DNA of 64,000 nucleotides from a bacterium (GCA_965216315.1 CBDCFN010000015.1:352001-416000), one strand, 5' to 3'. Positions 245-52,667 are shown, numbered from the stretch's first letter. Numbers and translations are program-made. Notes: generated from the letters alone by a model not told the origin.

Positions 245-1192
245 ATGTCTTTATTTACCAGTAGTGTTTCCCTGAATGCAATGGCGCTGGCCAGTGCGTC
301 ATCGGCCGTTCCGCTGCTGGAGAGTCCTGCTATCGGATCTTTCCTCGATGCCTTTGCGGCCTCGCCCGCAACGGGCCAGCTGATCGTGCCGCGGGTCACC
401 GCGGATCCGAGCCGCGCCAGCGGATTTCACGTTGAAGCGACACCGCTGACGGGGCGCAATGGGGCGCGCACGGTACGACTCATTCAAGAGCTGGCGGCAG
501 GCTTGCCCGAGGCTGATTTTCCGTTCGGTCGGCCTGCGTTGTCACCCGCGAGTGGGGATTGGGAGCTGGCATATCGGAAGTTGGAAGGACGCTGCACGCT
601 CTTCTTTCAAGCACCTGGTCGCCGCATCGATCTGTGCTATCGCCCGAACGAGCCCTTGGCACGCGCGGTCGTTGTCTACGGTGGTGAGACCGCCAATGTC
701 CGGCAGACCGTGACGATTCAAGGGGCCAACTTCGCGGATATCGTTTTTAACAGCTATACCTTTGAAATTCGCTCTGTGCTGGTTGAAGGCCTGCGCACCT
801 ATCTCGGTCTGCCGACCAATACTCCCCTCGAAGCCGTTGCGCATAGGCTTCCCGTGGCCCTCGATTTTACGGAACAAGTGGAACCGAGTGAGAATCCCCT
901 GCATGAACCGGAGGAAGGGCTCCTGGAACTTGAGAGCCGCAGGGCGGGCCAAATTTTAACGCTGCGAGCCGGTCTCAATCCGGCGGACTTAATGTATTCA
1001 GACTATTCAGAAGAAGTCGGCCTTTGGCTCTACCCTGAAACGGAGACGGGTAAGCGCTTGACTCCCGCCCAACTCCAATTCTGGAACTGGGTCGCGTCCC
1101 AAGTCGAGCCCAGCGAAGAGGACGTTGCCGCCTACCGGGAACGCACCCGGGCGCGTTATCAAACGATTGCCGGCAATGGTGTCGATGCCTAA
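245..1192 (+). CDS. Orphan hypothetical protein with S/A-rich N-terminal leader
   Basis: Long ORF; first ATG at 245 (MSLFTSSVSLNAMALASASS); no recognised domain. Confidence 0.7.
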   Translation: MSLFTSSVSLNAMALASASSAVPLLESPAIGSFLDAFAASPATGQLIVPRVTADPSRASGFHVEATPLTGRNGARTVRLIQELAAGLPEADFPFGRPALSPASGDWELAYRKLEGRCTLFFQAPGRRIDLCYRPNEPLARAVVVYGGETANVRQTVTIQGANFADIVFNSYTFEIRSVLVEGLRTYLGLPTNTPLEAVAHRLPVALDFTEQVEPSENPLHEPEEGLLELESRRAGQILTLRAGLNPADLMYSDYSEEVGLWLYPETETGKRLTPAQLQFWNWVASQVEPSEEDVAAYRERTRARYQTIAGNGVDA

Positions 1193-1214
1193 AAGCTGCC
1201 AATTCGGGGCCGCG

Positions 1215-1589
1215 TCAAAAGGGCATGACGACTTGGGCATCCGTCTTACGCAAATTCCGGTCCAGAGTTAGCAGGGGGACGTCTTCGACCTTGGACAGGG
1301 CATAGGCAAAACAGTCTCCCAGATTGATGGAAAAGCGGAGTCGGGCCTGGGCCGCGATCGCGGCCAGTTCATTGGTCGGTGCGACGAAGCGAATACCTGA
1401 CGTCATTAATTCGTCTTTGAGTTTGGGAAAAAGTTGAGGCTGGTGATCTTCCAACAGGATGAGGAGCTCCGTTAAATTGATCAGGCTCATTCGCAGTAGC
1501 CCTCGGTTTTCTTCCATGAGGTTTGTCACCCAGGGCCCTTGTTCCTCCTTGAAAAATACGGCCATCAGGGCTGAAGTATCAATCACCAT
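1215..1589 (-). CDS. vapC: VapC-family PIN-domain toxin
   Basis: MVIDTSAL start, NLGDCFAYAL and LLTLD motifs; 124 aa. Confidence 0.92.
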   Translation of the reverse strand: MVIDTSALMAVFFKEEQGPWVTNLMEENRGLLRMSLINLTELLILLEDHQPQLFPKLKDELMTSGIRFVAPTNELAAIAAQARLRFSINLGDCFAYALSKVEDVPLLTLDRNLRKTDAQVVMPF

Positions 1590-1591
1590 GG

Positions 1592-1828
1592 TTAGGTCCA
1601 GAGATCATTATCATCGTTAAAGCGGGGCGTTTTGCTGCGTGGGGCGGCGTTGGCGAGCCCTAACCATTCATTAAAGTCACGCCCCTGTGCCGCCGCGAGG
1701 GCGTGTTCGGTGGCTTCGCGAACGGCCTTACGAATGGCCTCAGACTTTTGCCGAATGCCCGTGTGTTTCATATATTGGGCGAGATCCTTCGAAAATTCAG
1801 CGGTTACGTTGAGATTGAGCTGCGACAT
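1592..1828 (-). CDS. vapB: Antitoxin of the VapBC pair (ribbon-helix-helix-like)
   Basis: 78 aa directly upstream of vapC; KSEAIRKAVRE helix pattern. Confidence 0.75.
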   Translation of the reverse strand: MSQLNLNVTAEFSKDLAQYMKHTGIRQKSEAIRKAVREATEHALAAAQGRDFNEWLGLANAAPRSKTPRFNDDNDLWT

Positions 1829-1933
1829 GCATATATGTATATCATCTGTACATCAAGCAGGTCAAGACATACCCGCATGGGCCGTTTTTGAGTAAGTCCT
1901 TATAATAATTAGATAAACCACATTAGGAGTGAC

Positions 1934-6988: not shown

Positions 6989-7012
6989 TGGCCACGTTTT
7001 CAGTCGGCGGAA

Positions 7013-7028
7013 TGTTCCACGTGGAACA
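7013..7028. promoter_or_regulatory. parS: parS centromere site
   Basis: Perfect palindrome TGTTCCACGTGGAACA near parAB. Confidence 0.93.
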
Positions 7029-7287
7029 TTCGTGGGTATACGCGCATTCATGTGCGCCGGGGCCTGGTTCTTCGCAGACCTTGGGCTGCGTCTCTAAAAG
7101 CAGACGTTCCCAAGGCAGCTCGAACCTGCCTTGCCGGTAGGCAGGCCACCCGGCGTCAAATCGATTCATTTTGGAGCGGGTGGCGCGAGGAGTCGTTTTA
7201 TTGTGACGCCCTCGGCACAAGAAAATGACTCCGTAGGCGACAGGACCCGCTAAGTTGAGAGTGAGGGAAGATGGGCCCCTATATGGA

Positions 7288-7313
7288 CAACTTTTCGCCC
7301 TTTAGGCCGAAAA
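7288..7313 (+). promoter_or_regulatory. sigma28-like promoter motif copy 3 (CAAC-N14-GCCGAAAA)
   Basis: 9 nt upstream of ATG 7323. Confidence 0.65.
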
Positions 7314-7322
7314 GGGCCCGCC

Positions 7323-8405
7323 ATGAGCTATCAAGGTGCCATCCTCTCAACCAGTCGAACCGCGGCGATCATGAACAGTTTTGTCGCTATGCCCCTGAGT
7401 GGCTCTGTCGGGGTGCCCGCGGCCCTTGCCGGGGGGACAGGCTTGAATGGAGTGATGCTGACGGATCAAAACGCGGCCGCCCTGGTCCAGTCGGTCGACA
7501 GCATGACTGCCGAGTCACGCCACCTGGAGGCGCTCCATGATGCCTGGGCACTGCCTCAGAACACGGCTCTTCTCGGCACAACTAATGATTGGTCGATTAG
7601 CGCCTTTCCCGTCCGCGAGTTTCAGTCATTTGATGATATCGATATCGGAGAGAGCCCCGAAGGACTCATTCTGCACGGTCCCCATAACCGGCGTGTCCGA
7701 CTCAATCTACTTAAAGAAGGCCTGGAGGTGAGCCTGGGGCTCAACGGTTCGATCGGGAAGGCCATCCAGACGGTTTTTATTGATTCGGCTCATCGGGTCT
7801 GGACGAGCAGTTATCATCTGGATTTCATGGGGCAAGCGGTCCAAGGCCTCCGCCATTATCTGCAGATTGACGGCGATGCTCCCCTCGCGGCAGTTGCCGT
7901 CTCACTGGTCGAGCAGATCGTCGCCTCTCAACAATTCGCGGGTGTCTCACTCGGTGAAATGACTCCAGGCCCGGCTGAAAACCCGAGCTCGGTTGCGCTC
8001 AGTTCAGAGGCGTGCGTGATTACCAATGGGCGCAGGGAGCATCCCGAGCCGGCCATAGAAATTACGGGCGAGGAGGGCGCCAATGGCTTTTTGACCTTAA
8101 CGATGAGGTGGGATGTCCGGCGCCCGACAGCTAAATCCGAACAGCGCCTGGTACCGCTGTCTCCAGCCGGCTTTAAACTCTGGCGGGGCGCTTCCCTGTG
8201 GGCACTCCACGAGCCGACGCTACAGGAGCAGGTGCAAGCGATTGTGGGCGACCAGATACACAGCCAAGTTATCGAACAAGTGGACCGGGTCGCTCGAGAA
8301 ATGCACAGGAGCATGCACAAGGAGCTTGCAGTGGATATTCGGGAGATTGCCGAGCAAATTATCCAGCGTGCGCTGGCGCCCAATGTGGGCAAAACAGAAT
8401 CCTAA
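7323..8405 (+). CDS. Orphan hypothetical protein with S/A/G-rich leader
   Basis: 360-aa ORF; possible weak similarity to 245..1192 (QGLRHYLQI..PLAAVA vs EGLRTYLGL..PLEAVA). Confidence 0.72.
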   Translation: MSYQGAILSTSRTAAIMNSFVAMPLSGSVGVPAALAGGTGLNGVMLTDQNAAALVQSVDSMTAESRHLEALHDAWALPQNTALLGTTNDWSISAFPVREFQSFDDIDIGESPEGLILHGPHNRRVRLNLLKEGLEVSLGLNGSIGKAIQTVFIDSAHRVWTSSYHLDFMGQAVQGLRHYLQIDGDAPLAAVAVSLVEQIVASQQFAGVSLGEMTPGPAENPSSVALSSEACVITNGRREHPEPAIEITGEEGANGFLTLTMRWDVRRPTAKSEQRLVPLSPAGFKLWRGASLWALHEPTLQEQVQAIVGDQIHSQVIEQVDRVAREMHRSMHKELAVDIREIAEQIIQRALAPNVGKTES

Positions 8406-8427
8406 AATTTGCGTTCACATCGCATAA

Positions 8428-8443
8428 TGTTCCACGTGGAACA
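8428..8443. promoter_or_regulatory. parS: parS centromere site
   Basis: TGTTCCACGTGGAACA. Confidence 0.93.
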
Positions 8444-8467
8444 TTGCGCCGACTGAAAACGTGGCCA

Positions 8468-8493
8468 CAACTTTTCGAGGCGTTGACCGATCA
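8468..8493 (+). promoter_or_regulatory. sigma28-like promoter motif copy 4 (CAAC-N14-ACCGATCA)
   Basis: 10 nt upstream of ATG 8504. Confidence 0.6.
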
Positions 8494-8503
8494 GGGCAGC
8501 GTC

Positions 8504-9310
8504 ATGGTGTGGGTGGTGCAAACAGCAATGCAGGCGACGACAGTGCTCGCCAATGCGGCCGGAGCCGCGACGGTGATCAGCCCGCTGGCGCATGTGCCCC
8601 TGCAGGTACTCGATGAGGCCACGGAATCGTTGGCCGAGTCCGCCTTTAGCCTGACAAAACAACTCTCCTGTGAACTGAGCTATTGCGTGACCCAAACGGC
8701 CTGGGAGCCGGTGCCTCAAGCCGATTTTTCCCGTGCCCACAGTCGAGAGCTGGCACTGACGGGTGAAAGCCTCCATACGGGCAAACGCCGAAATGAGATC
8801 TTTTCCATCGGCCAGTACGCACGGCACCTGAGGCTTGACTGCTCGGATTCATTCATTGCAAATTGCCTCGGTCTGTTGGAGGCGAGCGCGCAACATTTGC
8901 TTCAGCTCGAGCGTTCGGACGCCGTATCGTTGGCGACTATTCTCCGGCGGCGGCTTCCCGATGCTCCAGAGCAAGCCATCCGCAGGGGGCCCGTTGATTT
9001 CTATGTCTTTAAGTGGGTGGATCAAGATAGTCCGCTGATCCTGGCGATCAAGGCCTTTATTGGGCTCAATATGGGCGAGCTGTGGCTCACGGAAGAGTGG
9101 CGCCTGATTAGGCAACGGCGTGAGGCTGTCCTGTTGGCGGATGCGGATCGCGACGTCGGTTTTGGCCTTTATGCGGGGCTGGGACTCTGGCTTGATCACC
9201 CGCAGTATTTGGACTTGTTAAGCGAACCAATGGCACATAGGTCTGGGTTCATCACCCCGCGGAAAGACAGTCTCCAGTTCAATGGGGATTCGTTTACCCT
9301 CACTAAATAA
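8504..9310 (+). CDS. Orphan hypothetical protein, paralog of 6136..6954
   Basis: Start set at ATG 8504 (MVWVVQTAMQATTVLA) by alignment with the paralog and promoter position. Confidence 0.72.
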   Translation: MVWVVQTAMQATTVLANAAGAATVISPLAHVPLQVLDEATESLAESAFSLTKQLSCELSYCVTQTAWEPVPQADFSRAHSRELALTGESLHTGKRRNEIFSIGQYARHLRLDCSDSFIANCLGLLEASAQHLLQLERSDAVSLATILRRRLPDAPEQAIRRGPVDFYVFKWVDQDSPLILAIKAFIGLNMGELWLTEEWRLIRQRREAVLLADADRDVGFGLYAGLGLWLDHPQYLDLLSEPMAHRSGFITPRKDSLQFNGDSFTLTK

Positions 9311-17899: not shown

Positions 17900-17925
17900 C
17901 AACCTTTTTAGGCAGTGGCCGAAGA
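17900..17925 (+). promoter_or_regulatory. sigma28-like promoter motif copy 5 (CAAC-N14-GCCGAAGA)
   Basis: About 80 nt upstream of the megasynthase start. Confidence 0.6.
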
Positions 17926-18006
17926 GTTTGAGCTTGTGGGCGTCCCTCCTGGGTCGGACGGAATGCCTCAATATATTGTGCACTCGTTAAAGAAGGGGTA
18001 TTGGGC

Positions 18007-21000
18007 ATGCCTATTATTGGTTCCTCACTCGGGTTGGGAAACGCTGGGTTATTGGCTGCTGGAGGGGCGAGCCATAACGTTGGTCTCTTCCAAAGTTTCT
18101 TAGGACAAGCGGTTTCACAGGTCATCGCGTCCGATCGTGCCACGGAAGTTGTCGAGGGCTTGCTCTCACAACCCAATCACGGCACCCTTCTCCAAGAGTC
18201 CGGCATCCAGGCCGAGAGCAGTGAGGACATTCTCGAACAAATAGCCGGTTCCACGGAATATGCCCGCCGTGCCCTCGACAACAGGGAACTCCTCGAGGGG
18301 ATTATTGCCAGTTTTGTTACCCAGGGTCAGGTTGAACTGGGCGATGAGTTTGCGGTTCTCCTCAATCCCGTCACAGCGGGTGTCCATTTTACCGCTGCGG
18401 AGCTCGGAGGAATATACAGCCCCGTGGCGGGGACGGATGCGGGCGCGCGTTATGCGCAACCCCTCTCGCATGCGATTCAAACCGAGACCGCGACCCTGCG
18501 GAACGCCCTGAGTGAGGCGACGACTGCGACGCAGCGTTTAATGGATGCGCGTCATGTGGATGCCACGCAAGCGGCCGCAATTAACGCGGTGTGGACGTCG
18601 ATGGCACGCCTGGACCGGCTCCTCAACGTCGATGTCGTGCAGAAACCCGCCCGGCTGGGAGAAATCGATGAGCTCCAAAAGGCAACGGAGGCCTATCTGA
18701 GTGACTTAGGACTTCAACCGATGTCGCAGTTGGCGCTTGAGATGCGTGAAGGCAATTATCGATTCATGCTCCAGGCCCCGGGTCAGGCCAATGAATATAT
18801 TGGTCTGTTTAAACAGGTCTATGGGCGGTCGGATGTTGCCCGTCGTTTTGTCGACGAGATCGTGATTCCGGCGTTGCGCTCCGAAGGCATTGACGTCAAC
18901 GAATATCTGGACATGGATCCGGCCCAACTCAGCCTCGAGCAGAATAAAGCGGTCCTCAATAGCTCGCGTATTTCGCAGCCGATGATACTGGCGACGCAGC
19001 TGGCGCTGCTGGAAGAATTGAAGTCCTATGGCTTTGATCCGCAGTTTTTTACCGCGGGTTCCGGGCATTCCCAAGGGTTATTGTTGGCGTCGGTAGCGGC
19101 CGGCAAGACAGGTCCGGCTGAAGCCCTGCGCATTGTGGCTATTCACGGACGTGAGATGCAGAACGGCACCAAGGCGGCGAACACGAAGGTGCCGATGGTT
19201 TCCGTGCTGGGTATTTCGCGCATGGAAGCCGCGCGCATGAGTAATGAGATCAATTTGCACTTAGCGCTCGTCAACGGGATACCCGGTGAGACGGCTCCAC
19301 TCAATCCCTCACAGTTGCGCGAACTCAAGGAAAAGGCCGATTCCGATATGCTGTATGGCCGGCTTTTTCCGGTCGAAAAAATGGCCCAGGATCCGGCGTT
19401 GCGTGCGGCCTATCCTTTCTTTGCCCGTTATTTTAACCGCGATTTTCATCTGACGGACGAAGAGATTCGCAAGTTGGGTCTGCCGCGTGGCCTCAATGAG
19501 AGCGCCGCCTTTATCATTCGTGGTGACATGGAAACGACCTATACGGCACTGATCAATATGGAACCGAGTGATGGTTCCCGAACTCGCGGCGTCATGCCGG
19601 CGTTCATCTTTTCCGGGACGCATCAGGCTCAGGAGTTGGTGTTAGGATTATTGGGCAACAAACAAGCCGGAACCGAACCCCATCCCGCGTTTCGCAATGT
19701 CGGGTATAATTTTAATAAGAAAGAAGAGACGACCTTTCCCAAGACGGCAGTCTTGATCACCTCATCACCGTTCCATCATGCCGGGGAACAACGGGCTGCC
19801 TTTGAAAAATCCGTTGCGCGTGCCGATGAGACCCGTGGGGAGGCGACTTTTCCCGTCGTGCTCAACAGCGAGCCCGCGAGTTTTGCCGAACTCGGATTGA
19901 CGCCCCAGCAGGAGGCCCAGCGGATTACGGCGGAACAACATGTGCGCCACGTCGATTGGCCGGCAACGGTCGAAAAAATGCTGACTTTTGGCGATCAGAC
20001 GAAACCGGCTGTATTTGTCAGCATGGGAGACGGAGTGGTGGCGGGTTTTACCGCAGCGACAACCGCGGGTCGTGCGACGACGATTGCCGCGGCCAATAAA
20101 GATGGCAGTGGCTTTGCTCAACTGACTTCACGCAAATCCGCAGGGCTCCGCTTGAGGACCGCCCCACTGGCCGACCGCAGTATCTATGAGCCGATCGAAG
20201 CCCAGGTCTTGGCGGGGCGACCGAACGTCGATGGCCAGTATCTGGGGCCCATAGGCTATCTCTCCAGCGTCACACTCGGCAATGATAAGCAACGCCTGGA
20301 TCTGATTCGCCGCATCCGGAAGGTCGTCGATTTTTCGGATCCCATGCATCCCAAGTTCAATAACGATGAAATTCTAGCACGCCTGGGGGCCGAAGGACCT
20401 TATGGCGTGGCAGCGATGACGGGTCCAGGGACCTCTAAGCTCATCGGCGCCGTCGCCCGCGCAGGGCGGACCGCCTATCTCGCGGCGGGTAATTACCCGG
20501 GCAAGGCCCACCTGAATATTTCTATTAAGCAAGGCTTTATTACCGGACTTATTGATACCGCATGGGAAACAACCCGCAGTGCCGACCCCGCAACCGGCGA
20601 ACTTGATGCGGGGTCCCTGACCTATGGAGGCGAGCCGGTCGTACGCGGTTCGATTGAGACGTATTCGGACCGTGCTCAGACGGATGGTCAGTATCTGGGT
20701 GAGGCCCGCTTTGAAGGCCCGATGAAATCATTCGGCGTCAATCTCATGCATGCTGCCGGCGGCGGTGTTTTCAGTAAGGCGCAGTGTGATGCGACCGCTG
20801 AAATGATCGATCGCGGTCTCCCCATCGATAAGATCAGTGTGGGGATCTATCTGATCCAGGATAATGCGGAACTGCGCCGTTACATTCCTTTGTTGGCTCG
20901 CGGCGTGCGCTTTGCCCCGTTGCTTCCCAACATGAATGCGATTCGAATCTATCAAGATGAGCATATTCCTTACCTTAAAGAGGAGTTGAAAAAATACCTT

Positions 21001-24000
21001 GAGGGCGGGTGGCGCACCTTCAATGCCGATAACCCGGGTTATTATGAAAGTGACGCGATTCACAGCCGTTTTGCGGCGGCCCATCCGGAGTATTTCGGCA
21101 AGGGGGGCTATGACCGCTTCATGGCCGACCATCCCGATCTCCTCATGAAGATGAGAGAGGGGAATGACGGGGGCGGACACAATTCCCCTGAAGGCACCCC
21201 GACCTATCGTCTCGTGCAAGACGCAGTGGTGAATCCGAAGAATGAGAAGACCAAAAATATTTCCACCGGGGGGTATTCTTTCGGAGTTGCGGTGGCCGAT
21301 GCTTTGTTGTCCGGAGCGGCTGGCGTTCAGGCGGGGAGTGTCTTTGAGATCACTCAGGAAGCTGACCTTCCCTACAAGGTGAAGGCCTTGATCATGGAGG
21401 TGGCGGACCCGGACTCCCCACGTGAAGCGACGAACATTGTCAGTGAATTTGGTAAGCCGCTCAATGTTGCGGTGAATGCCTTTAGTCAGGCCTATGTGGA
21501 TTTGGTGGCCACCGATGACGCCGAAGAGATTCTGGATATACTGGCGCGGGAACCCGTCGACTCGGTACGTTTTCACCGCGAGTTCTGGAACAACGGCATT
21601 GAGACCGAAGATCCCGCGCTCAACTTTGTCATGAAAAACGAAGCGGTCTTCGAACCCATTTGGGATTTTCTCGTCGGCGATCGCCAGTCGGGGCGCCAAG
21701 CGGCCCTGGACGCCATCCGTAAGCTAAACGCCGAGGACGAGAAACGCTGCCATGCCAATTTCTTGAAGAAGCATAAAGATGAGTCAACGCGTCCCGCGTG
21801 GAACCCCACCGAGGGGAATGACAAGGCGCAACTGATTACATTTTATCGCGTGTTCCGGACCAACATGATCCAGAGCGGCGAGGTCGATCCCGAGTGGGCC
21901 TATGTCCTCGTCGGTCGTTCGATCACGCGCATGCCGCAACAGTTCTTAGAGCGCTTCAAGGCGGACGGAACCCTGCCGACCGTGAGCGAGTTTATCAATA
22001 CGATCGAGTCGGATGCCTTGAGCTACCTGACTCAGTTGATGGGGCGCGCGTTGACCGTGCAGGCCCAACGGGCCCAGGCCTATGAGCTACAATCTTTTGA
22101 TCCGGTGCCGAATGTCCAGATTTTCCGGCAGGCCAGCGAAGAGGGTCAACAGACCTTGCGTGTCCGTCCGCTTGGGGCGATGAGTGAAGATGCGCTGGCC
22201 TCCTTTCGTCGTGCTGCGAAGGCACAGGGGTATGGTCACGTGGCGGAGGTATTGCGCCAGGGCTCTGAATTTAATCGCTTCTTTACCCCGAGAGCGGGAC
22301 GCGAGTTCTACTTCGACCTGCAAGCGACGGATGGCCAGAGTCCTCAGCTGGTGGCCGTTCGTATCCTCCAAGACGGCAAAGAGATCGCACGTGTCGAGTC
22401 ACCATCAGCGACGGAAGTCACCATGTCTTATGAAGTGCCCCGGGATGCGTATGGAGAGCTGGAGCCGCGAACCCTCACGTATCAATACAATCTTCAAGAG
22501 CCAGTTCCAGGCGTTCATGAATGGCGCCTGGATCGCGAGCGCGTCCAACGCGAATCGACCGCTATTTTTGGCGAGTTGTTGACGGGGACGCAGCTGGATT
22601 ACACGGGTCGCACGATCAGTGACACATATACCGATCAACGCCCGGTGAGTGAGGAGCGAGTGCGCGAATATGCGCGTATCGTCGGTGAGGGCTATGACGT
22701 CTTTCATCGCGAAGGTGTCGTACATCCCGGCTTGGTTGGGGTTGAGAGTCTGCGCAGTGCGGTCCTCGCCAGCAATCATCCGGATTTCCAGACCGATCGC
22801 TTCCAACTGTTGCATGCCTTCTTTAATCAGAGTTTTGGAACCTCGGCATCTGTTGGGAGCGACGTCCAAGTGGCCTCTCGTAATACCGAGGCCACCGGAC
22901 TCGATAACGGGGGCTTCAGTCAAGATGCACGCATTGTCACGCGCAATGCGGCAGGTGACGTTGTCAGTGAAGTCGATACCGGCTTTGTCAATCTCGACCC
23001 GAGGAGTCGTTTTACGCCGCTGTCGGAAAGCATTGATCCTGAGCTGGCGGATCCCGCGACGGCCGAGACGCTGACAGGTTTTGCGGCCTATCCGATCTGG
23101 CAGCCCGAGCGGGTGGTCAAGGTCACGCGGCAGGATATTCTCGATTATACGATGTTCGATCCCAATGCGATCCACCATGCCGATTTCGTGGCTCAGATGG
23201 CGGGATTGGATGATGGGATTATTGCCCAAGGCATGCTGGTTCACGGCAAGATGGTGTCACACATGTTGGGGGGGTATCTGCAAGGAGACCTCGATCGTGC
23301 CGTTTCGGTCAAGACCACGTTTACCGGCAAGGTTCTCCCCGGCGAAGACCTGGATCTGGTTGCCTACCGCATCGGTCAGCAAGGCGAATACGATATCTTA
23401 CGGTTTGACGCGACCAACGCCGATGGCAATACGGTCGTGACCCAGGAGTGGAAAGTCCGGCGCAATGGTCAGATCGTGGCCTTTCCGGGACAGGGTTTTC
23501 AAAAGGCGGGCATGTGGACGAGCGTTACGAACCGCTACCAGGCACCGCAGGACGCCAAACCCGAGCTGAAGGCGGCCTATGAGCGCGCGCAGCAAGCACA
23601 ACGAACCTTTCTAAAGCAGGTGGATCAGCATAGTCTTGAGAGGTGGGGCTTTAGGCTCTCCGATGTCGTCAAACATGCGCCCAAGACGTTGAGTTTTAAC
23701 GTCAGCGAAGATTACGCCGGTGAGTCCTATCGAGGCCGGTCAAAAGGGGAGCGGCTGACGGTTCGCAACGCCAGCCAAAATGGCATCCTTAGCGAAACCG
23801 ATTTTACCCAGCCGGCGCTGTTTGTTGCCTATGTCCTCGATTGGATCGGCATGCGCGAGTTAGGCAAGATTCATCCGGATGCGGATATCGTTTATAACTC
23901 GCTCGGCAAGATTGCGGCGCTGGTTGCGGTCGGGGCCATCTCACCGGTTGATGGTCTTCAATTGGCCCGGGCCCGTGGTGTGTTCATGGGCGAGGTCAAG

Positions 24001-32918: not shown

Positions 32919-34220
32919 TCAGGGCGTCAAGGGGAGTGCGCGCAAGGCATATTCCTCGAGCAATTTCTCCATCTCCCGAAGCTGGCCGGAAAAATAGCGC
33001 CGGCGTTTCTCGTCGACGATTTCGGTCAGAAAGCGATAATCAAAAATGGGTTGGGTGTCAGGCCGTGTGCCGTGTTCACAGGAGCGGATATAGGAGGCGG
33101 CCTGACTGCAGTAGGTGTCGAAGGCGTTGAGGACGGTATCGGGCAGCTCGGTTTTCCCTTGTTTCTTTGCCTTGCGTGGTTCGTATACCAAGTTTCGCTG
33201 GATTTCCCCCCAGCGGAAGTTGCCCATCGTCATGACCTGGATCTCTGCGGCGGGGCGTGGGAGGCGCATGCTGCCCTCAAAGCTCTTGAGGATGTTGATA
33301 TGGCTCGCCTGATACCCGCTCGGATAGTCATGGGTTTCCACCTGATGAATTTGATAGGCGTAGGGTTGCTGTTCATCGGGATCCCCAAAGCGGGAACGGG
33401 TCAGGGCCTCTTCAATGCGTTTAATCGTTGGACCGACATCCATCGGTCCGGAGACGACGACACGCAGCCCGGCCAGGTCGAAGATGTCATTCATGTTCTT
33501 CATGCCGCGGGTGACGAGTTTTCTGAGGACCCCTTGCTTGATGCGGCCAAAGATCAGCTCCGTGCCGGGCATCCAACCGACTTCTCGGTCGAGCAGGCTT
33601 TGCAATTCCTGGAGCCCCAGTAAATAGGGCTCGAGAAAATTGGCTTCAGCCTCGTTGCGTGACTTGCGATAGCTCAGGAGCTGTTCAAACAAGAAACGGG
33701 CAAAGTGTTCGTAGTCGGAGCCCAAGTAAGACAGGGTGCGCGCCATTCCCTCGATCAAGTGACTCGCGAAACAATCCGCGTCACGCAGCCGGTTGACCTC
33801 TTGCAACGCGGCGAGGGTGAGTTCCGCCTCGCGAACGACCTCGTGAGGGGCCTTGTTTTCGGCGTGGACTTGGCTCAACAACCATTGCTCGATCATCGTA
33901 TGGATACGGGCGGTCGGGACTTCGTCTCCGGGCCGCGCATTTTCGACGAGTTCCGCGAACTCAGCGGTGATCCGGTGGGCCATGTTCTGGAGGACTTCGG
34001 CGTCACCATTGCGAAACATGGTCGGGACCAGAAAATGGGCCGGTTGGTTGAGGTGCTCCTGCAAGGGCTTGGAACCGGCCGGTAGCTCCCAGGGCCGGTT
34101 GGTCAGGACGACGGCCGGCTGTCCATTGACGCTCGGCTGAATCACCGTGTGCGGATTCAGCAGGCTTGCACCCATCGTTGCTGCAGCGGATGCCGGAACT
34201 ATGAAATACTGAAAAGACAT
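32919..34220 (-). CDS. RelA/SpoT synthetase-domain protein (small alarmone synthetase-like) with novel N-terminal region
   Basis: GRIK, DLAGLRVV, SGYQASHI, EIQVMT motifs; no HD, TGS or ACT domain seen. Confidence 0.82.
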   Translation of the reverse strand: MSFQYFIVPASAAATMGASLLNPHTVIQPSVNGQPAVVLTNRPWELPAGSKPLQEHLNQPAHFLVPTMFRNGDAEVLQNMAHRITAEFAELVENARPGDEVPTARIHTMIEQWLLSQVHAENKAPHEVVREAELTLAALQEVNRLRDADCFASHLIEGMARTLSYLGSDYEHFARFLFEQLLSYRKSRNEAEANFLEPYLLGLQELQSLLDREVGWMPGTELIFGRIKQGVLRKLVTRGMKNMNDIFDLAGLRVVVSGPMDVGPTIKRIEEALTRSRFGDPDEQQPYAYQIHQVETHDYPSGYQASHINILKSFEGSMRLPRPAAEIQVMTMGNFRWGEIQRNLVYEPRKAKKQGKTELPDTVLNAFDTYCSQAASYIRSCEHGTRPDTQPIFDYRFLTEIVDEKRRRYFSGQLREMEKLLEEYALRALPLTP

Positions 34221-34229
34221 CGGGCGTCT

Positions 34230-34255
34230 TTTTCGGCAGCTTGTCGCCAGGGTTG
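34230..34255 (-). promoter_or_regulatory. sigma28-like promoter motif copy 7 (CAAC-N14-GCCGAAAA)
   Basis: 9 nt upstream of ATG 34220. Confidence 0.65.
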
Positions 34256-34381
34256 TGAACTAAAGCGGATAAATAGCACTCCAAGGCGGTTTGCTTTGCG
34301 AATTCATGCGAAGAGCGGGTGTTCCGTACGCGTTATGTGGGCATTTGGCCGGCTCGCAAATTTCTGCAACCGCTGTATTGG

Positions 34382-34407
34382 CAACTTTTGGCAAAGAATT
34401 GCGACAA
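34382..34407 (+). promoter_or_regulatory. sigma28-like promoter motif copy 8 (CAAC-N14-TGCGACAA)
   Basis: 9 nt upstream of in-frame GTG 34417; weakest -10 match. Confidence 0.5.
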
Positions 34408-34416
34408 ACGGGAACG

Positions 34417-35967
34417 GTGTATGTCTCAGCTTTAACAAGTTCTACAACCGCAGCAACGATGCTGGCGGCATCGGCGCCGATTCGGCCCCATCTGTTCCAG
34501 CGCGTGCGGGAGCGTGTGGTTGAGCCGGCGGTCAGCTCGGTGCGGACGCCGGAAGGGCGTTCCCATCTGGCGCGTTTGACCCGCTTGGGCGTGCGTGCTG
34601 CGAGTGCGCGCCTTTTGCACGGCCGTTCGGAGCGGCCCTCGCTGGAAACCGCGCGCGAAGAGGGCCTGCACTTTGCGAGCCGGCCCTCCGAAAAAGACGA
34701 ATTTTTAACGGCCCTGCTCGGTGATGAAAGCTACGTCTGGAACCTGCTCGGGCTGAAAGCGACGTTCGGTTCAATGGTGCGGGGGTTGTGGCAGTACGGC
34801 CAAGTGGTCGGCCTCCGGCAGTTTGTTTCCGATTATCGTCATACCTTCAACAGTCGCGAACGGCTTCCGATCAATCCCGCCTATCTGGACAAGGGCCGGA
34901 GGGTCTTTGGGGAGTGGTGCATTCGTTATGCGGCAGCCAACAACATTGATGTTCAGTTTGAGGGGTTGGAGAAAATTCCGGCCGAGGGCCCGGTTGTCTA
35001 CGCAATGGGCCCGCATAGCAGTATTTTTCCCGACTTTCTCTTCGCGATCGCCGATCCGCGCCTCGGTTTCGTCGCAGCGGCCGACAACTTTCGAGATAAC
35101 CTCGCGGCCCGCATCATGGGTTTTTCGCTGCTGAGCGACGAATTAGGGATTCCACTCGTCGACCGCAATGATATTGAGTGGAATAAAGTCCTCTATCCGT
35201 TGATTATTCAGACGGCGATGGAGTTCGGGATTCGCCCGGCCTGGTGGTGGCATGGAAGACGTCTTCCGGAGGCCTACAACGATGAAGGCCATTCGGATCG
35301 CGTCGGGTACTATTCAGCCGTCGATCCGATCAAGGACGGCAAGTTCAATCCACTCCAGTACCGGCGTTTGGGAGGTGTGATCGATAACGCCCTCGAATTG
35401 GCGATCCAGTCCCAGCAGACAGTGAAACTGATTGTCGTGACTGTTGACGGAGCGGAGACCGTCATGCCCAAGCGCACGAGTAAGTTTCCCTTTTGGCAGG
35501 AAAATCGGGCCGGTAAGACCGTGCGCTATAAGGTCGTCGAGGTCATTGATGTCGAACCTCCACAACGGTCGAAACGGGCCCTGGTCCGCCCCTTGAGTAA
35601 CGCGATTGAGGAGGCAACCAAAGAGGATATGGGCATCGATCAATTCCTTGCCGCTACGGTGACGCGGTGGGGGGCCTTACGTGGCTACGCAAACAGCGGG
35701 GAGCGCTTCTTGGAACTTGCTCGCCGGGATAGAAAGGCCCGCTTGTTCATGGTCGCTGATCGAATCCGTTCCATCCATCCGGCTTCGGAGGATAAACACA
35801 GTCGCCGTGAGTTGATCGATCGGCTCTTACATATCGTGCATGCCGAGGCGGGTGACAATGAGGCCGAAAGAATCATGTCGGTCGCGTGGCTCGATCTCTT
35901 GCTGCATGACGTTTCGGAACAGGTCTCCCAGACCCAGTATCGGCCGCCGCGGCGGCTTTCAGCCTAA
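34417..35967 (+). CDS. Divergent PlsC/LPAAT-family acyltransferase with N- and C-terminal extensions
   Basis: VQFEGLEKIP, PHSSIFPD (HX4-5D), IPLVDR, WWHGRR (FPEGTR-like). Confidence 0.68.
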   Translation: MYVSALTSSTTAATMLAASAPIRPHLFQRVRERVVEPAVSSVRTPEGRSHLARLTRLGVRAASARLLHGRSERPSLETAREEGLHFASRPSEKDEFLTALLGDESYVWNLLGLKATFGSMVRGLWQYGQVVGLRQFVSDYRHTFNSRERLPINPAYLDKGRRVFGEWCIRYAAANNIDVQFEGLEKIPAEGPVVYAMGPHSSIFPDFLFAIADPRLGFVAAADNFRDNLAARIMGFSLLSDELGIPLVDRNDIEWNKVLYPLIIQTAMEFGIRPAWWWHGRRLPEAYNDEGHSDRVGYYSAVDPIKDGKFNPLQYRRLGGVIDNALELAIQSQQTVKLIVVTVDGAETVMPKRTSKFPFWQENRAGKTVRYKVVEVIDVEPPQRSKRALVRPLSNAIEEATKEDMGIDQFLAATVTRWGALRGYANSGERFLELARRDRKARLFMVADRIRSIHPASEDKHSRRELIDRLLHIVHAEAGDNEAERIMSVAWLDLLLHDVSEQVSQTQYRPPRRLSA

Positions 35968-50902: not shown

Positions 50903-51069
50903 TGATCACCGGACCATAAATTAAATAACTTATTGAAATTATTTAATAAATTTACTCTTCTTGTGCATGGCCCCATTATCATTCTGATAAAATTATCAAA
51001 TTGATAATATTTGTCGTTGGCCCGCTACGGAAAAAGTGAAGGAAATTGGCGAGTTAGCAAAACGGTGTT

Positions 51070-51085
51070 TGGCATAGATCATGCA
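51070..51085 (+). promoter_or_regulatory. sigma54 promoter
   Basis: TGGCATAGATCATGCA, GG-N10-GC. Confidence 0.62.
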
Positions 51086-51108
51086 AAGACGGCAGGGAGG
51101 AGGATGCG

Positions 51109-51486
51109 ATGCAACATATTAAGTGGGTCATGGCCGTAGCCATCTTGGGGTCCTGTTTCGTTATTAACGTCCCGTCCGGAGTTGAGGCGCGGTCCGATCT
51201 AGTCGTCGGGAGCGGTGAGCTGAGCGAGGCACAAAAACAAAAAGAGGTCTGCGGGAAGTTACGCGATGAGTGTAAGCAGAGCTGCAAGCGTAATTACGAC
51301 CACGAACTCAACCTCGCGCGTGAAGAGGCCAAGCGCGGTGCGATAGCCACGATCATCTTTGGGGAGTCTGCGGATCCCCAGGTGGAACTCGATGCCGCCC
51401 TGGAAAAATGTAAAGGCAATTGTGATGAGGATTTTACCTGTTGCCTCGAACAGCAGGATCCGCTGGGCTGCTTTTACGGGATCTAA
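51109..51486 (+). CDS. Small secreted Cys-rich hypothetical protein
   Basis: Signal peptide; C-x6-C-x3-C and C-x3-C-x5-CC patterns; GGAGG RBS. Confidence 0.75.
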   Translation: MQHIKWVMAVAILGSCFVINVPSGVEARSDLVVGSGELSEAQKQKEVCGKLRDECKQSCKRNYDHELNLAREEAKRGAIATIIFGESADPQVELDAALEKCKGNCDEDFTCCLEQQDPLGCFYGI

Positions 51487-51527
51487 TCGCTACCTAATTA
51501 CGAATTGCTCCATCTGAATAGAGACTT

Positions 51528-52667
51528 TTAGAAACTTCGAACAAAACTGATTCGTGAAGTTATGGGCTTAAAGCCGAGCGTGCGATTTAGGCTGATCATA
51601 CCGGTATTGCTCGACTCATTAGCGACGAGGATAGTTGGAATTCCCTGTTCTTGTGCGTAGGCAATTGTTCGTACTTTGAGGGCGAGTGCAATTTGGCGGC
51701 GGCGGTAAGCCGATTTCACTCCGGTGAGGTGGCTCCAGGCATGTTGCATGACTGCGCGGCCGAGCAGACTGCTCGTGCCGATATAATTCCCTTCGTGAAG
51801 GGCGACAAAGTAGGCGTCGGGTGAGAAGCCTGGGCTTTGAAGAATAACCTTTGAAAAGCTCTCAAAACTCATCTTGAGCGTGCCCTCTGGAAAAGGAGCG
51901 TCACTCAAGAGTTCGTTTTCAAGGTCATAAAGCTTACGGTCGCGTTCCGGATCAGCTGCCAGCTCGCTCATCGATTTGATTTCTATTCCCTCGTTATTCA
52001 ATCGAGTCTCATGTTCTTGATAAGGCGCCAAATTAGCCAGAGCGACGGGCAAAGTCATGACGACGTCACGCATACGCTCTCGGAAACCGCGTTGTTTCAG
52101 AAAGGCGATTCCCGCCGACGATTCCTGGTTCAGAACGACGCGGATGGTTTGAGGATTGAGAACTTGCAGTGCCGTCATGATCGTGGAGAAAAGGCGACTT
52201 CCTATTCCGCGCTTTTGAAATTGCGGGTGAACAAAGATCTTTATTGTGTATTTGTCGGGATGATAAACGATATATGGCTGATCATATTCAGCAAAAGCGA
52301 TGATTTCACCCTCGTGCCTGACGACCCAGCGCTGAAGGCGGCAGCGAGGATCCCGACTCACATCAAAAAAACGGATTTCGTCAGCAGTGAGTGGACGTTC
52401 AGGATAAGCGATATTTTGAAGTACACTGATCGCAGGGGCGTCGATAGGGCGATAGAGTTGGAGCGGATAAGCCCGGTTTCGAACTGCCTGGATTGTGTTT
52501 GTGCGCTGAAAGGCGAGATTGCGTTGATGTTGGGTGGCCAGCAGCGTCGGAGGTCCCTCAAAATGAAAGCTGTCCAGGCGGCGATAAGGACACGCGGTTT
52601 CCACAGGCGGTAACAAGGCCGTCGTGATTCCGAAACCGCTGAGAGAAGTTAGCAGGGGTGAGCTCAT
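51528..52667 (-). CDS. Tandem GNAT acetyltransferase with S/T/L-rich leader
   Basis: VHPQFQKRGIG, TGVKSAYRRRQIA, N..M..LN..LGF; start at ATG 52667. Confidence 0.88.
   Translation of the reverse strand: MSSPLLTSLSGFGITTALLPPVETACPYRRLDSFHFEGPPTLLATQHQRNLAFQRTNTIQAVRNRAYPLQLYRPIDAPAISVLQNIAYPERPLTADEIRFFDVSRDPRCRLQRWVVRHEGEIIAFAEYDQPYIVYHPDKYTIKIFVHPQFQKRGIGSRLFSTIMTALQVLNPQTIRVVLNQESSAGIAFLKQRGFRERMRDVVMTLPVALANLAPYQEHETRLNNEGIEIKSMSELAADPERDRKLYDLENELLSDAPFPEGTLKMSFESFSKVILQSPGFSPDAYFVALHEGNYIGTSSLLGRAVMQHAWSHLTGVKSAYRRRQIALALKVRTIAYAQEQGIPTILVANESSNTGMISLNRTLGFKPITSRISFVRSF

Follow-up and report, generated by a model that had tools for sequence, protein, structure and literature searches.

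Ten proteins encoded in a 64,000-nucleotide stretch of DNA from an uncultured bacterium (the window) begin with an uncharged leader rich in Ser, Thr, Ala, Gly and Leu. What is the function of this leader? The preliminary description of the window proposed that it may be an export tag that does not use the Sec route. Here, we describe the leaders, their promoters and their cargo, together with the export machinery found in the genome (2.96 Mb, 98.3% complete).

The leader genes in the window

All 10 of the N-termini quoted in the preliminary description are present in the window, and nine of these genes are preceded by the motif CAAC-N15-[C/G/T]CGA[A/T]. Every one of the nine intergenic CAAC-N15-CCGA(T/A) promoters lies upstream of a leader gene, and the start codon of seven leader genes is located 6–9 nt past the −10-like octamer. 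The window holds 14 further loose matches to the motif, mostly intragenic; behind these, an ORF is either missing or both charged and wrongly spaced, and they appear to be chance matches.

The first gene (promoter 164–190, CDS 245–1192, + strand) has a 54-nt 5′ leader with GGAGG and encodes a 315-residue protein with the N-terminus MSLFTSSVSLNAMALASASS and no Pfam match. The next (promoter 6988–6962, CDS 6954–6136, − strand; 272 residues, N-terminus MVLLGGMAFQATTVLAGA) has its ATG 7 nt past the octamer, so its mRNA is probably leaderless. It is a paralog of a 268-residue protein (promoter 8468–8494, CDS 8504–9310, + strand) with the ATG at 9 nt. The gene for a 360-residue protein with one Arg within its first 20 residues (promoter 7288–7314, CDS 7323–8405, + strand) has the ATG at 8 nt. 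None of these three proteins has a Pfam match.

The largest product is a FAS-like megaenzyme of 3854 residues (promoter 17900–17926, CDS 18007–29571, + strand) with the N-terminus MPIIGSSLGLGNAGLLAAGG, whose gene has a 74/80-nt 5′ leader with a Shine-Dalgarno site. It contains segments for an enoyl reductase (NMO/FabK-like), a MaoC dehydratase, a malonyl/palmitoyl transferase (MPT) and a ketoreductase, in the order of the fungal/CMN type I FAS, and the DH-MPT part aligns to yeast FAS beta. Sequence searches detected no ketosynthase, ACP or PPTase segment in this protein. An ORF of 98 residues (29602–29898, + strand; leader MFASIGMTSLYSMAVPTLASSS) follows 3′ in the operon, with a Shine-Dalgarno site and without a promoter of its own. 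The opposite strand encodes a 561-residue protein (promoter 31570–31544, CDS 31537–29852; ATG at 6 nt) that has a Gly-rich hydrophobic stretch near residues 150–185 and two known homologs, the N-termini of both being uncharged. The 98- and 561-residue products had been labelled as ACP and PPTase, respectively, but these labels find no support in Pfam, NCBIfam, PDB sequences or Atlas.

A RelA/SpoT-like protein of 433 residues (promoter 34255–34229, CDS 34220–32919, − strand; ATG at 8 nt) has a C-terminal domain predicted to fold as in small alarmone synthetases and CapRel. Its residues 1–70 are modelled with low confidence, and no fold is modelled for the leader. Divergent from this gene, across a 196-bp spacer, lies the gene of a 516-residue protein (promoter 34382–34408, CDS 34417–35967, + strand) that starts with GTG at 8 nt; its earlier label, PlsC-like, is tentative, the single lead to it coming from a language model. 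The last of the genes (promoter 52702–52676, CDS 52667–51528, − strand; ATG at 8 nt) encodes a double-GNAT acetyltransferase of 379 residues. For the FAS-like, RelA-like and GNAT proteins, the earlier labels are supported, as is the claim that the leaders are attached to enzymes of cytoplasmic type.

Composition of the leader

Gene starts were taken from a crude ORF caller rather than a trained gene finder, and charges were counted in the resulting 2511 ORFs, a gene being called promoter-spaced if its start codon lies 3–11 nt past the promoter. Residues 1–20 contain no Asp, Glu, Lys or Arg in 59 of the 94 promoter-spaced genes, compared with 84 of the 1443 Shine-Dalgarno genes and 42 of the other 974; 76 of the 94 have at most one such residue. 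The charged fraction in the promoter-spaced genes is 0.4% in residues 1–10, 1.8% in residues 11–20 and 8.8% in residues 21–30, and then reaches about 20%, as in other proteins. The low charge described for the window is borne out genome-wide and goes well beyond what chance would give. About 158 ORFs (6% of genes) bear the leader, and many of these encode enzymes of the usual cytoplasmic kinds. A few entries in the set are clearly false positives, namely GpsA, MurG, a cytochrome c assembly protein and a DHOD electron-transfer subunit. The leader is 25–30 residues long, with a median uncharged stretch of about 29 residues (a value partly set by the definition of the leader set), and charged residues make up 1.3% of its residues 2–22.

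A recurrent box, [LIVM]-L-[AS]-[ASG]-[STAG], is found near residues 14–19 in 24 of 76 leaders but in only 1 of 76 internal windows. It is encoded with five Leu codons, four Ala codons and both Ser codon families. Asn and Gln, whose codons likewise have A in second place, are retained in the leaders. Selection acts on the leader as protein and not as RNA, because only Asp, Glu, Lys and Arg are lost, the codons vary, and 82 of the 158 leader ORFs, many with a Shine-Dalgarno site, do not have the leaderless spacing. The last point also shows that the leader does not arise merely as a consequence of leaderless translation. The concern that the true starts lie downstream is largely answered, since translation of the leaders is indicated both by how the ATG is spaced from the promoter and by the variety of codons used.

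The leaders were said to lack both the basic n-region and the AxA site of Sec signals. Sec signals combine a basic n-region with a hydrophobic core of 7–15 residues, and the leaders do not fit this pattern. The absence of a basic n-region is confirmed, and for the best 10-residue Kyte–Doolittle (KD) window the median is 1.64 in leaders, 2.80 in the genome's Sec-like N-termini and 1.02 in cytoplasmic N-termini. Only 1% of leaders reach a KD of 2.3, which is the threshold that defined the Sec-like set. The absence of an AxA site needs some correction, as the box in its form L-A-[AS]-[STAG] resembles such a site and fits small residues at −3/−1. The leaders show no helical amphipathicity (muH 0.242, compared with 0.249 ± 0.005 for shuffles), and no NCBIfam model matches them. 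They are Ser/Thr-rich with no acidic residue in the first 12, and 63% carry Pro or an aliphatic residue as their third or fourth residue, compared with 48%; both observations are partly circular, as the set was chosen for absence of charge. The comparison free of this bias is that of 59 of 94 promoter-spaced genes with 84 of 1443 Shine-Dalgarno genes.

The promoter and its spacing from the start codon

Genome-wide, the spacing between motif and start codon shows a sharp peak at 4–10 nt, with 109 of 578 motif matches, and beyond it there are about 3 matches per 1-nt bin. Past the −10 octamer the peak is at 5–9 nt, a spacing that leaves no room for a Shine-Dalgarno site. The start codons at promoter spacing are 67 ATG, 8 GTG and 1 TTG, whereas those of Shine-Dalgarno genes are 1006, 216 and 221, a preference for ATG that leaderless translation would lead one to expect. 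Judging from this spacing, genes at 3–11 nt probably give leaderless mRNAs.

The −10 element is CCGATAA (GCCGATAA-like), and 15 nt separate it from the CAAC element upstream. The −10 element and the spacing agree with the sigma-28 consensus, while CAAC does not, the −35 element of sigma-28 being TAAA. In a scan of 117 rows, ordinary Sec or lipoprotein signals account for at least five charged N-termini at promoter spacing. Since the same promoter drives these genes, export appears to be a feature of the entire regulon.

Cargo and composition of the mature proteins

The leader proteins include, besides the FAS-like synthase, phosphofructokinase (PFK), protein kinases, GDH, acyl-CoA ligases, acyltransferases, GGDEF proteins, a cyclase, helicases, phospholipases and nucleotide-signal synthetases; 108 of 157 (about 69%) have no Pfam domain. 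Their enzyme domains begin 25–150 residues past the start codon (GDH at 78, the lyase at 39 and PFK at 79). Because much of this cargo requires ATP, NAD(P)H or CoA, the periplasm or the medium cannot be its workplace. Some of it is odd for effectors, namely hybrid histidine kinases, GGDEF proteins, PFK and the histidine/phenylalanine ammonia-lyase; for the last two, as for the DAG-kinase-like protein, the leader-tagged copy is the only one detectable in the genome. A LamG paralog array contains copies with leader-like N-termini and others in which a hydrophobic core and a lipobox Cys come after a leader-like start.

The mature parts of the leader proteins (n = 157) differ from 1265 other proteins in containing 0.37 times as much Cys and 0.67 times as much Lys, and K/(K+R) is 0.27 compared with 0.48 (p 7e-39). 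The depletion persists within GC bins and in 5/5 tagged/untagged paralog pairs, three of them marginal. It fits work in another compartment.

The type III secretion system and its sigma factor

The preliminary description, which found no secretion apparatus in the window, called for a search of the genome for export machinery. Such machinery is present, which answers the objection that the genome might offer no suitable export system. A single non-flagellar T3SS is encoded outside the window (contig C16, 339–360.5 kb). Its core is complete, with SctV, SctU, SctR/S/T, SctN, SctL, SctO, an SctP-like protein, SctQ/FliM/FliN, SctJ and FHA/YscD-like proteins; the profiles matched in the cluster are FHIPEP (787 bits), SctJ TIGR02544 (115 bits), FliP/Q/R, the ATPase, FliH/SctL, YscO, FliK/HpaP, FliM/N, YscJ, YscD-like FHA and FlhB/SctU. 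The nearest named SctV sequences, at 53%, are from Myxococcota MAGs. A 147-residue TPR protein of the cluster is similar to LcrH/SycD, at an E of 1.5e-10 that falls short of the cut-off. The recognisable apparatus proteins, such as the FliK/HpaP-like one, start without an uncharged leader. The promoter precedes both genes directly after sctT (717 residues, probably leaderless; 491 residues) and not the structural operons.

No secretin was found for this T3SS. The genome has two Secretin matches, one of them weak (27.6 bits, a 262-residue ORF); the other, of 988 residues, was rejected as a T3SS secretin, as it is the GspD of a complete T2SS. Needle and translocon families gave no match in the cluster, although small divergent needle proteins could escape such a search. 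With neither recognised, injection into another cell is hypothetical. A search for CesT-type chaperones gave no match in the genome and was also silent in control genomes. Flagellin, rod and hook proteins, as well as T4SS (VirB4), T6SS (TssC) and a contractile sheath, were not found in the genome; its only T2SS is a classical one, and a further T2SSE-type ATPase that could serve a Tad or Kil pilus is absent.

The only FliA/WhiG-like sigma factor of the genome lies inside the T3SS cluster. Its best model is TIGR02479, with 133 bits against an NCBIfam cut-off of 189.6, and the next two score 108 and 67. No FlgM was recognised; a 162-residue ORF 3′ of the sigma gene has no family match. All 41 genomes of the class have an ortholog of the cluster sigma factor, with 52–81% identity, and in at least 17 of them it lies on the sctV contig.

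The leader in related genomes

Orthologs of the RelA-like protein, the FAS-like protein (in genome G001) and the 561-residue protein retain an uncharged leader while its sequence drifts. In G002, of the same family, 12 of 17 open reading frames that follow the promoter carry no more than one charge, compared with 1 of 14 in G031 (family f18), 6 of 15 in G030, 0 of 6 in G016, 0 of 2 in G009 and 2 of 4 in G010 (family f9), counted over 20 residues. G031, G030, G016 and G009 all retain the T3SS and the sigma factor. As a test of signal type, this shows that the leader is not retained wherever the same T3SS is. The T3SS, the sigma factor and the promoter are class-wide; given its uneven retention among genomes bearing the T3SS and the sigma factor, the leader is characteristic of family f1 and, in part, of f9, and is confined to these.

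Proposed function of the leader

We consider the chances about even that the leader is the type III export signal of an effector regulon of sigma-28 type. In such a mechanism, the leader genes would form one regulon under the FliA/sigma-28-like factor encoded in the T3SS cluster, and this factor would read the CAAC-N15-CCGATAA promoters. Transcription would begin at or beside the ATG to give leaderless mRNAs. Since the genes would be one regulon, their approximately 150 products would be made together, late in a flagellum-like hierarchy. The T3SS would then recognise the leader and take up the products, and the cargo may do its work in the cytoplasm of a host or prey cell.

The uneven retention of the leader, against a class-wide T3SS, sigma factor and promoter, speaks for a different role, that of a lineage-specific sorting or processing tag for another exporter, for packaging (vesicles) or for an intracellular site, possibly with cleavage at L-A-[AS]-S. 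The conserved small-residue box also resembles a cleavage or docking site more than a degenerate type III signal, and the partner machine could be among the many leader proteins without a Pfam domain. We regard this as an appreciable but lesser possibility, as the VirB4, TssC and sheath searches leave no candidate machine, the leader matches no NCBIfam model and lacks amphipathicity suited to membrane docking, and the ties to the T3SS-cluster sigma factor and the sctT-adjacent genes would be coincidence. A role inside the cell on a stage-specific set of proteins that are never exported, as a degradation or stability tag or an aid to leaderless expression, would account for the single-copy enzymes (PFK, ammonia-lyase, DAG-kinase-like) and the bacterial signalling proteins in the cargo, and co-regulation by an alternative sigma factor is seen in developmental programmes. 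This seems improbable to us: about half of the leader ORFs lack the leaderless spacing, the tolerance of Asn and Gln with exclusion of charges is a protein-level rule, a degron leaves the Lys/Cys depletion along the whole mature protein unexplained, and the sharing of the promoter with genes for Sec and lipoprotein signals suggests an export theme.

It is very unlikely that the leaders are unusual signals of Sec or lipoprotein type, without a basic n-region, that direct proteins to the periplasm or surface. Their length of about 20–25 residues, the AxA-like box, a hydrophobicity above that of cytoplasmic N-termini and the mixed LamG array would agree with this, but their core is much less hydrophobic than in the Sec signals of this genome, there is no basic residue, and the cofactor-dependent cargo includes a 3854-residue synthase, helicases and kinases. 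An artefact of mis-called starts or compositional chance, which the crude ORF caller and the few clear false positives might suggest, is hardly credible in view of the sharp promoter-to-ATG spacing, the tenfold enrichment, the conservation of the leader in orthologs and the distance of the enzyme domains from the start codon.

Comparison with known systems

The signals of T3SS effectors, such as the Yops of Yersinia and the Hops of Pseudomonas syringae, lie in the first 20–30 residues, are Ser/Thr-rich, have no consensus and tolerate charges. The leader is like them in position, in its Ser/Thr content, in having no acidic residue in the first 12 residues, in the frequent aliphatic residue or Pro at position 3/4 and in not being modelled as folded. 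Effector signals are borne by enzymes acting in another cell, and the leader too is borne by many proteins with enzyme domains. Unlike effector signals, the leader has a recurrent box and excludes all four charged residues. In the flagellar class-3 hierarchy, sigma-28 (FliA) promoters drive the late T3SS substrates, and export of the anti-sigma factor FlgM is the checkpoint. The present system shares with it a FliA-family sigma factor encoded with the export apparatus, the CCGATAA −10 element with its 15-nt gap, and a promoter that serves putative substrates instead of structural operons. It differs in having no flagellum, CAAC as the −35 element, no recognised FlgM and a regulon of about 100–150 genes, mostly with probable leaderless mRNAs.

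Chlamydia has sigma-28-dependent late genes and metabolic enzymes with type III signals. The small genome, the absence of a flagellum, the sigma-28 homolog and the metabolic enzymes with N-terminal extensions are common to both, whereas the lineage, the consensus signal, the probably leaderless transcripts and the share of genes (about 6%) set the present system apart. Chloroplast transit peptides, which serve import into a eukaryotic organelle, are rich in Ser, Thr and Ala, acid-poor, basic and longer. The likeness of the uncharged, shorter leader to them is compositional only, as an extension on cytoplasmic-type enzymes, and homology is not implied.

Among the three nearest loci of non-flagellar type, none encodes a FliA-like sigma factor less than 10 kb from sctV. 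In Myxococcus xanthus, a 'needleless' T3SS* and the Kil Tad pilus carry out contact-dependent prey lysis, with effectors that are reported to be still unknown (PMC12075869). The T3SS described here is similar in having a sorting platform and export gate with no recognised secretin, needle or translocon; it differs in that its genome is small and has no second ATPase of the Tad/Kil kind.

That a flagellum-like circuit has been turned into a switch for about 150 effectors with a consensus secretion signal, sending whole metabolic modules to a host or prey, is a bolder reading that we put forward as doubtful. If it is true, the delivered modules would include the FAS-like synthase with acyltransferases and acyl-CoA ligases, PFK, GDH, kinases and alarmone synthetases. 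The depletion of Lys and Cys would be an adaptation to the host or prey cytoplasm, for example, for the avoidance of ubiquitin in a eukaryotic host. This would then be the first T3SS with cargo that can be read directly from the sequence, and it would provide a guide to the effectors of related myxobacterial T3SS*.

Results

Leader genes and promoters in the window

The ten uncharged N-termini listed in the preliminary description are all present in the window where it had placed them, and each opens a long ORF. They belong to g1 (start 245, + strand, 315 aa), g2 (start 6954, − strand, 272 aa), g3 (start 7323, + strand, 360 aa), g4 (start 8504, + strand, 268 aa), a FAS-like multi-enzyme (18007–29571, + strand, 3854 aa), a 98-aa ORF that follows it in the same operon (start 29602, + strand), a 561-aa protein (29852–31537, − strand, start 31537), a RelA/SpoT-like protein (start 34220, − strand, 433 aa), a 516-aa protein (GTG start at 34417, + strand), and a double-GNAT protein (start 52667, − strand, 379 aa). 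The regulon motif, CAAC-N15-[C/G/T]CGA[A/T], consists of a sigma-28-like −10 element (CCGATAA) with CAAC upstream. All nine intergenic copies in the window lie upstream of a leader gene. Another 14 loose matches, mostly intragenic, have behind them either no ORF or a wrongly spaced charged ORF and seem to be due to chance. For seven of the window leader genes, the start codon lies 6–9 nt after the −10 octamer, which leaves no room for a ribosome-binding site, and leaderless mRNAs are thus predicted. A 5′ leader with a Shine-Dalgarno sequence is found at g1 (54 nt) and at the gene for the 3854-aa protein (about 80 nt).

A perfect palindrome, ATGTTCCACGTGGAACAT, stands some 25 nt before CAAC in both paralogs, g2 and g4 (at about 7010–7035 for g2, on the − strand, and about 8420–8447 for g4), and is followed in each by the identical spacer CGCCGACTGAAAACGTGGCCA. 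This palindrome looks like an operator added to the sigma-28-like promoter. The divergent RelA-like and 516-aa genes are separated by 196 bp (34220–34417) containing two back-to-back promoters of the same type, each with leaderless spacing.

Extent of the leader class in the genome

The genome (2.96 Mb in 16 contigs, 98.3% complete), in which the window is C15:352001–416000, contains 578 copies of the motif. The distance from the octamer to the first start codon opening an ORF of ≥80 aa peaks at 4–10 nt, with 10, 16, 30, 8, 22, 17, and 6 cases, 109 in total, against about 3 cases per 1-nt bin beyond the peak. Our own crude caller gave 2511 non-overlapping ORFs of ≥100 aa, 94 of which have the promoter at 3–11 nt. 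Residues 1–20 are free of D, E, K, and R in 59 of these 94 (63%), and 76 (81%) have at most one charge; the corresponding charge-free counts are 84 of 1443 (5.8%) for Shine-Dalgarno genes and 42 of 974 (4.3%) for the remaining genes. In successive ten-residue bins, the charged fraction of the 76 leaders is 0.4%, 1.8%, and 8.8%, and then about 20% as elsewhere, showing that the leader is about 25–30 residues long. Residues 2–22 are rich in L (17%), A (16%), S (14%), T (9%), and G (7%), with D, E, K, and R together at 1.3% and no depletion of N or Q. A short box, [LIVM]-L-[AS]-[ASG]-[STAG], occurs in 24 of the 76 leaders, mainly at positions 14–19, vs 1 of 76 internal control windows; it is also seen in 42 of 1443 Shine-Dalgarno-gene N-termini, of which 19 belong to the charge-free group of 84.

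Beyond the leaderless class there are 126 charge-free N-termini, about 30 from membrane proteins and about 85 from leader-like ORFs, many of which have the promoter 16–90 nt upstream together with a Shine-Dalgarno site. A 29-position leader profile HMM run on six-frame ORFs gave at most 12.6 bits and no discrimination, so rule-based sets were used. The rule (few or no charges, modest hydrophobicity, richness in S, T, A, G, and L) selects 158 ORFs, 6.3% of ORFs and 8.8% of residues, including a few clear false positives, namely GpsA, MurG, a protein of cytochrome c assembly, and a subunit of DHOD.

A type III secretion system and its sigma factor

There is no secretion apparatus within the window. 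The preliminary description had called for a search of the genome for export machinery, and profile searches located a T3SS cluster outside the window at C16:339083–360514, on another contig. Its SctV matches FHIPEP with 787 bits, and the cluster also encodes the SctJ lipoprotein, two FHA/YscD-like proteins, an LcrH/SycD-like TPR protein (147 aa), FliH/SctL, the ATPase, a YscO/FliJ protein, a FliK/HpaP-like protein, FliM-like, FliN, FliO, and FliP/Q/R proteins, a weak FliG-like protein, and a 299-aa sigma-70-family factor. Flagellar-type components (FliG-like, FliM-like, FliO, and the FliA-like sigma) are thus mixed with injectisome-type ones (SctJ, YscD-like FHA, YscO, and LcrH-like TPR). Neither flagellin nor rod or hook proteins were found in the 98.3%-complete genome, so the T3SS is non-flagellar. 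Searches of the genome for VirB4, TssC, and a contractile sheath were likewise negative. The one good secretin is the GspD of a complete T2SS, which has the only T2SSE ATPase of the genome, and no T3SS secretin, needle, or translocon was recognized. A search for CesT chaperones gave no match in this genome or in any control genome. The sctU gene lies apart at C16:805 kb (C16:803995–806090), next to genes for a Ser/Thr kinase with PEGA domains and an FHA/YscD-like GGDEF protein; these neighbors suggest phospho-signaling control of the apparatus. Among named SctV sequences, those of Myxococcota MAGs are the closest (53%), followed by those of Chlamydiae (46–49%).

The sigma factor of the cluster is the only FliA-like one in the genome. 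Its best model is FliA/WhiG TIGR02479, at 133 bits, below the cut-off of 189.6, and the next matches are at 108 and 67 bits. Both SctV/T3SS and an ortholog of the sigma factor (52–81% identity) were found in all 41 sampled genomes of the class (20 families), and in at least 17 of the 41 the sigma gene is on the sctV contig, about 10–18 kb away. The three nearest non-flagellar loci outside the class have no FliA-like sigma within 10 kb of sctV. The promoter precedes both genes directly after sctT, encoding a 717-aa protein (leaderless, with the leader) and a 491-aa protein; it was not found upstream of the T3SS structural operons. Ordinary Sec or lipoprotein signals account for at least five of the charged N-termini that occur at leaderless spacing in the genome. 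In most relatives, the promoter followed by ATG is enriched over a reversed-pattern control (65 vs 4 in G000, 74 vs 3 in G031, and 48 vs 0 in G040), with weak enrichment in G005, G007, G013, and G021.

Putative cargo of the regulon

Pfam was scanned at E ≤ 1e-4 with 157 of the 158 leader ORFs, and the FAS-like enzyme was scanned separately. A family was assigned to 49 ORFs and none to 108 (69%). Lipid enzymes include a patatin, a DAG-kinase catalytic domain, a PlsC-type acyltransferase, two acyl-CoA-ligase-type AMP-binding enzymes, and the FAS-like enzyme; signaling proteins include four Ser/Thr kinases, GGDEF, a class III cyclase with AAA and TPR, hybrid histidine kinases, and RelA/SpoT. The other domains are GNAT, Exo_endo_phos nuclease/phosphatase, metallophosphatase, HAD, metallo-beta-lactamase fold, methyltransferase, four FGE-sulfatase, pentapeptide repeats, FHA, helicases with sigma region 4, LamG, and TPR. 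Plain metabolic enzymes are also present: PFK, glutamate dehydrogenase (GDH), an aromatic ammonia-lyase, malic enzyme, a PLP enzyme, RtcB, an amidase, and a class-V aminotransferase adjoining a cysteine dioxygenase. A tblastn search of the genome found a second, divergent copy of GDH, RtcB, malic enzyme, the amidase, and the aminotransferase, each with charged residues in its N-terminus, and no second copy of PFK, the ammonia-lyase, or the DAG-kinase-like protein.

The functional labels given earlier to the window genes fared unequally. The 3854-aa protein, described as a fatty acid synthase, has FabK-type ER, MaoC DH, MPT/AT, and KR segments, and its DH-MPT part aligns to yeast FAS beta, but neither Pfam nor PDB sequence search found KS, ACP, or PPT segments. 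In this single chain ER, DH, MPT, and KR are ordered as in fungal/CMN type I fatty acid synthases; such a type-I-FAS-like enzyme is unusual for a bacterium of this kind, and homologs of its N-terminal part were found in families f1 and f9 only. The RelA-like assignment held: by Foldseek (E about 1e-6), its C-terminal domain is similar to small alarmone synthetases and to the pyrophosphokinase of CapRel. In four genomes from other families of the class (G020, G022, G027, and G036), a RelA/SpoT-like domain lies within giant open frames of 2733 to 17 560 aa, where effector-like domains seem to have been fused into very large proteins. For the 516-aa protein, the PlsC-like label has a language-model lead to PF01553 (score 0.93) as its only backing. 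The names phosphopantetheinyl transferase for the 561-aa protein and ACP for the 98-aa ORF are unsupported; the former is not recognizable as such an enzyme and had no usable Atlas match. Homologs are few (two for the 561-aa protein and one for the 717-aa protein). A Gly-rich hydrophobic stretch of about 35 residues in the 561-aa protein (around 150–185), conserved in both homologs, could be a membrane hairpin.

Discussion

Could the leaders be an artefact of gene calling, with translation starting elsewhere? The box draws on five different codons for Leu, four for Ala, and both codon families for Ser; charged residues are excluded from the leaders, unlike Asn and Gln, whose codons likewise have A in second position; and 82 of the 158 leader ORFs lack the leaderless spacing. 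The leader stays uncharged as its sequence drifts in the RelA-like orthologs of G002, G001, and G010 (with promoter and spacing kept in G002 and G010), in the FAS-like ortholog of G001, and in both known homologs of the 561-aa protein. Known enzyme domains begin well inside the proteins, at residue 78 in GDH, 39 in the ammonia-lyase, 79 in PFK, and 85 in the class-V aminotransferase. Start codons behind the promoter (67 ATG, 8 GTG, and 1 TTG, vs 1006, 216, and 221 in Shine-Dalgarno genes) fit leaderless initiation. These patterns argue for translation of the leader and for selection acting at the protein level, and we give an artefact hardly any credence. That it is an odd Sec signal is very improbable. 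The leaders have no basic residue, and the median Kyte-Doolittle value of their best 10-residue window is 1.64 (10th–90th percentile 1.29–2.00), vs 2.80 for Sec-like N-termini, a set itself defined by a Kyte-Doolittle threshold of 2.3, and 1.02 for other N-termini of the same genome. A membrane-binding amphipathic helix was also rejected, the hydrophobic moment at 100 degrees being 0.242 vs 0.249 ± 0.005 for shuffles. No NCBIfam model matches the leader. In the RelA-like protein, modelled by AlphaFold from a 4-sequence alignment (mean pLDDT 83), it is not confidently folded, residues 1–70 being at 43–74 and the remainder confident. Outside the window, a tandem array of LamG paralogs (C16:444173–456136) has five copies with leader-like N-termini, for example ..SAQPILASS and ..SARPVLASS, and three with a leader-like start ahead of a hydrophobic core and a Cys lipobox; N-termini of one kind may turn into the other in this array.

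A role inside the cell, in stability or expression, is unlikely. Beyond residue 40, the 157 leader proteins of >120 aa (one of ≤120 aa was dropped) have less Cys (0.47% vs 1.28%, x0.37) and Lys (3.3% vs 4.9%, x0.67) than 1265 Shine-Dalgarno-class proteins of >120 aa, and more Arg (x1.35), His (x1.33), and Gln (x1.29). The median K/(K+R) is 0.27 vs 0.48 (Mann-Whitney p = 7e-39), and the gap persists within GC bins (0.29 vs 0.47 at 50–55% GC; residual p = 4e-32) and in 5 of 5 tagged/untagged paralog pairs, two clearly and three marginally. Because the set was chosen on the first 20–35 residues only, this gap is independent of that choice, and it says that the leader proteins are subject to constraints of a different kind. 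Lysine depletion is known from toxin A chains as ubiquitin avoidance in the eukaryotic cytosol; literature listings and abstracts gave no support for lysine-poor T3SS effectors. Sorting or processing by a route not yet known is a possible, though doubtful, explanation, and it is bound up with the distribution of the leader. Of the open frames that follow the promoter, the fraction carrying no more than one charge in 20 residues is 12/17 in G002 (f1; 20 of 21 listed sites fetched, 17 of them with frames of ≥45 codons, which were counted), 2/4 in G010 (f9; 4 of 4 strict sites), 6/15 in G030 (f13; 23 of 23 listed sites), 1/14 in G031 (f18; 16 of 20 strict sites), 0/6 in G016 (f13; 12 of 12 listed sites), and 0/2 in G009 (f8; 5 of 12 listed sites). 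Boxes in G002 include PLLAAG and PILAAT, and the G030 leaders are Pro-rich and occur alongside ordinary Sec signals. These shares indicate that the leader is an innovation of f1, and partly of f9, atop a conserved T3SS, sigma factor, and promoter. Conservation with the apparatus is expected of a type III signal, but the uncharged leader is not class-wide, which is the chief evidence against the T3SS reading given below; all 41 sampled genomes have a T3SS, leaving no T3SS-less genome for a co-occurrence comparison. Either f1 has refined a signal that is normally degenerate, or the leader has some other function.

The preliminary description had proposed that the leaders are export tags of effectors, and we lean, with confidence evenly balanced, to the leader being a T3SS export signal of a sigma-28-type late regulon whose cargo acts in another cell. 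The FliA-like sigma of the cluster would transcribe this regulon from CAAC-N15-CCGATAA promoters, mostly as leaderless mRNAs, and the uncharged leader would be recognized by the T3SS export gate or by a general chaperone. The cargo would then act in the cytoplasm of another cell, a workplace suggested by its need for ATP, NAD(P)H, or CoA. Signals for type III secretion are notoriously difficult to recognize, and lists of effectors normally have to come from experiments; the present leaders are a putative signal of this kind. Neither a leader like this one nor a T3SS regulon of sigma-28 type with leaderless mRNAs was described in the literature listings and abstracts.

About 6% of the genome (8.8% of coding residues) is singled out by a single combination of promoter, spacing, and leader type. 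Should the link to the T3SS be wrong, the tag still marks a large class of proteins set apart by their composition. The 'needleless' T3SS* of Myxococcus xanthus (PMC12075869) resembles the present system in having no recognized secretin, needle, or translocon, judged here from the genes; that account gives its effectors as unknown and has the Myxococcus relatives of this T3SS taking part in prey killing. Given a signal that can be read from sequence in a sister system, the open question of these effectors becomes testable. If the export reading is true, a non-flagellar T3SS can retain flagellar sigma-28 logic, large metabolic enzymes can be T3SS cargo, and a ready catalogue of effectors would be at hand for an uncultured, small-genome lineage with a T3SS in 41 of 41 sampled members.
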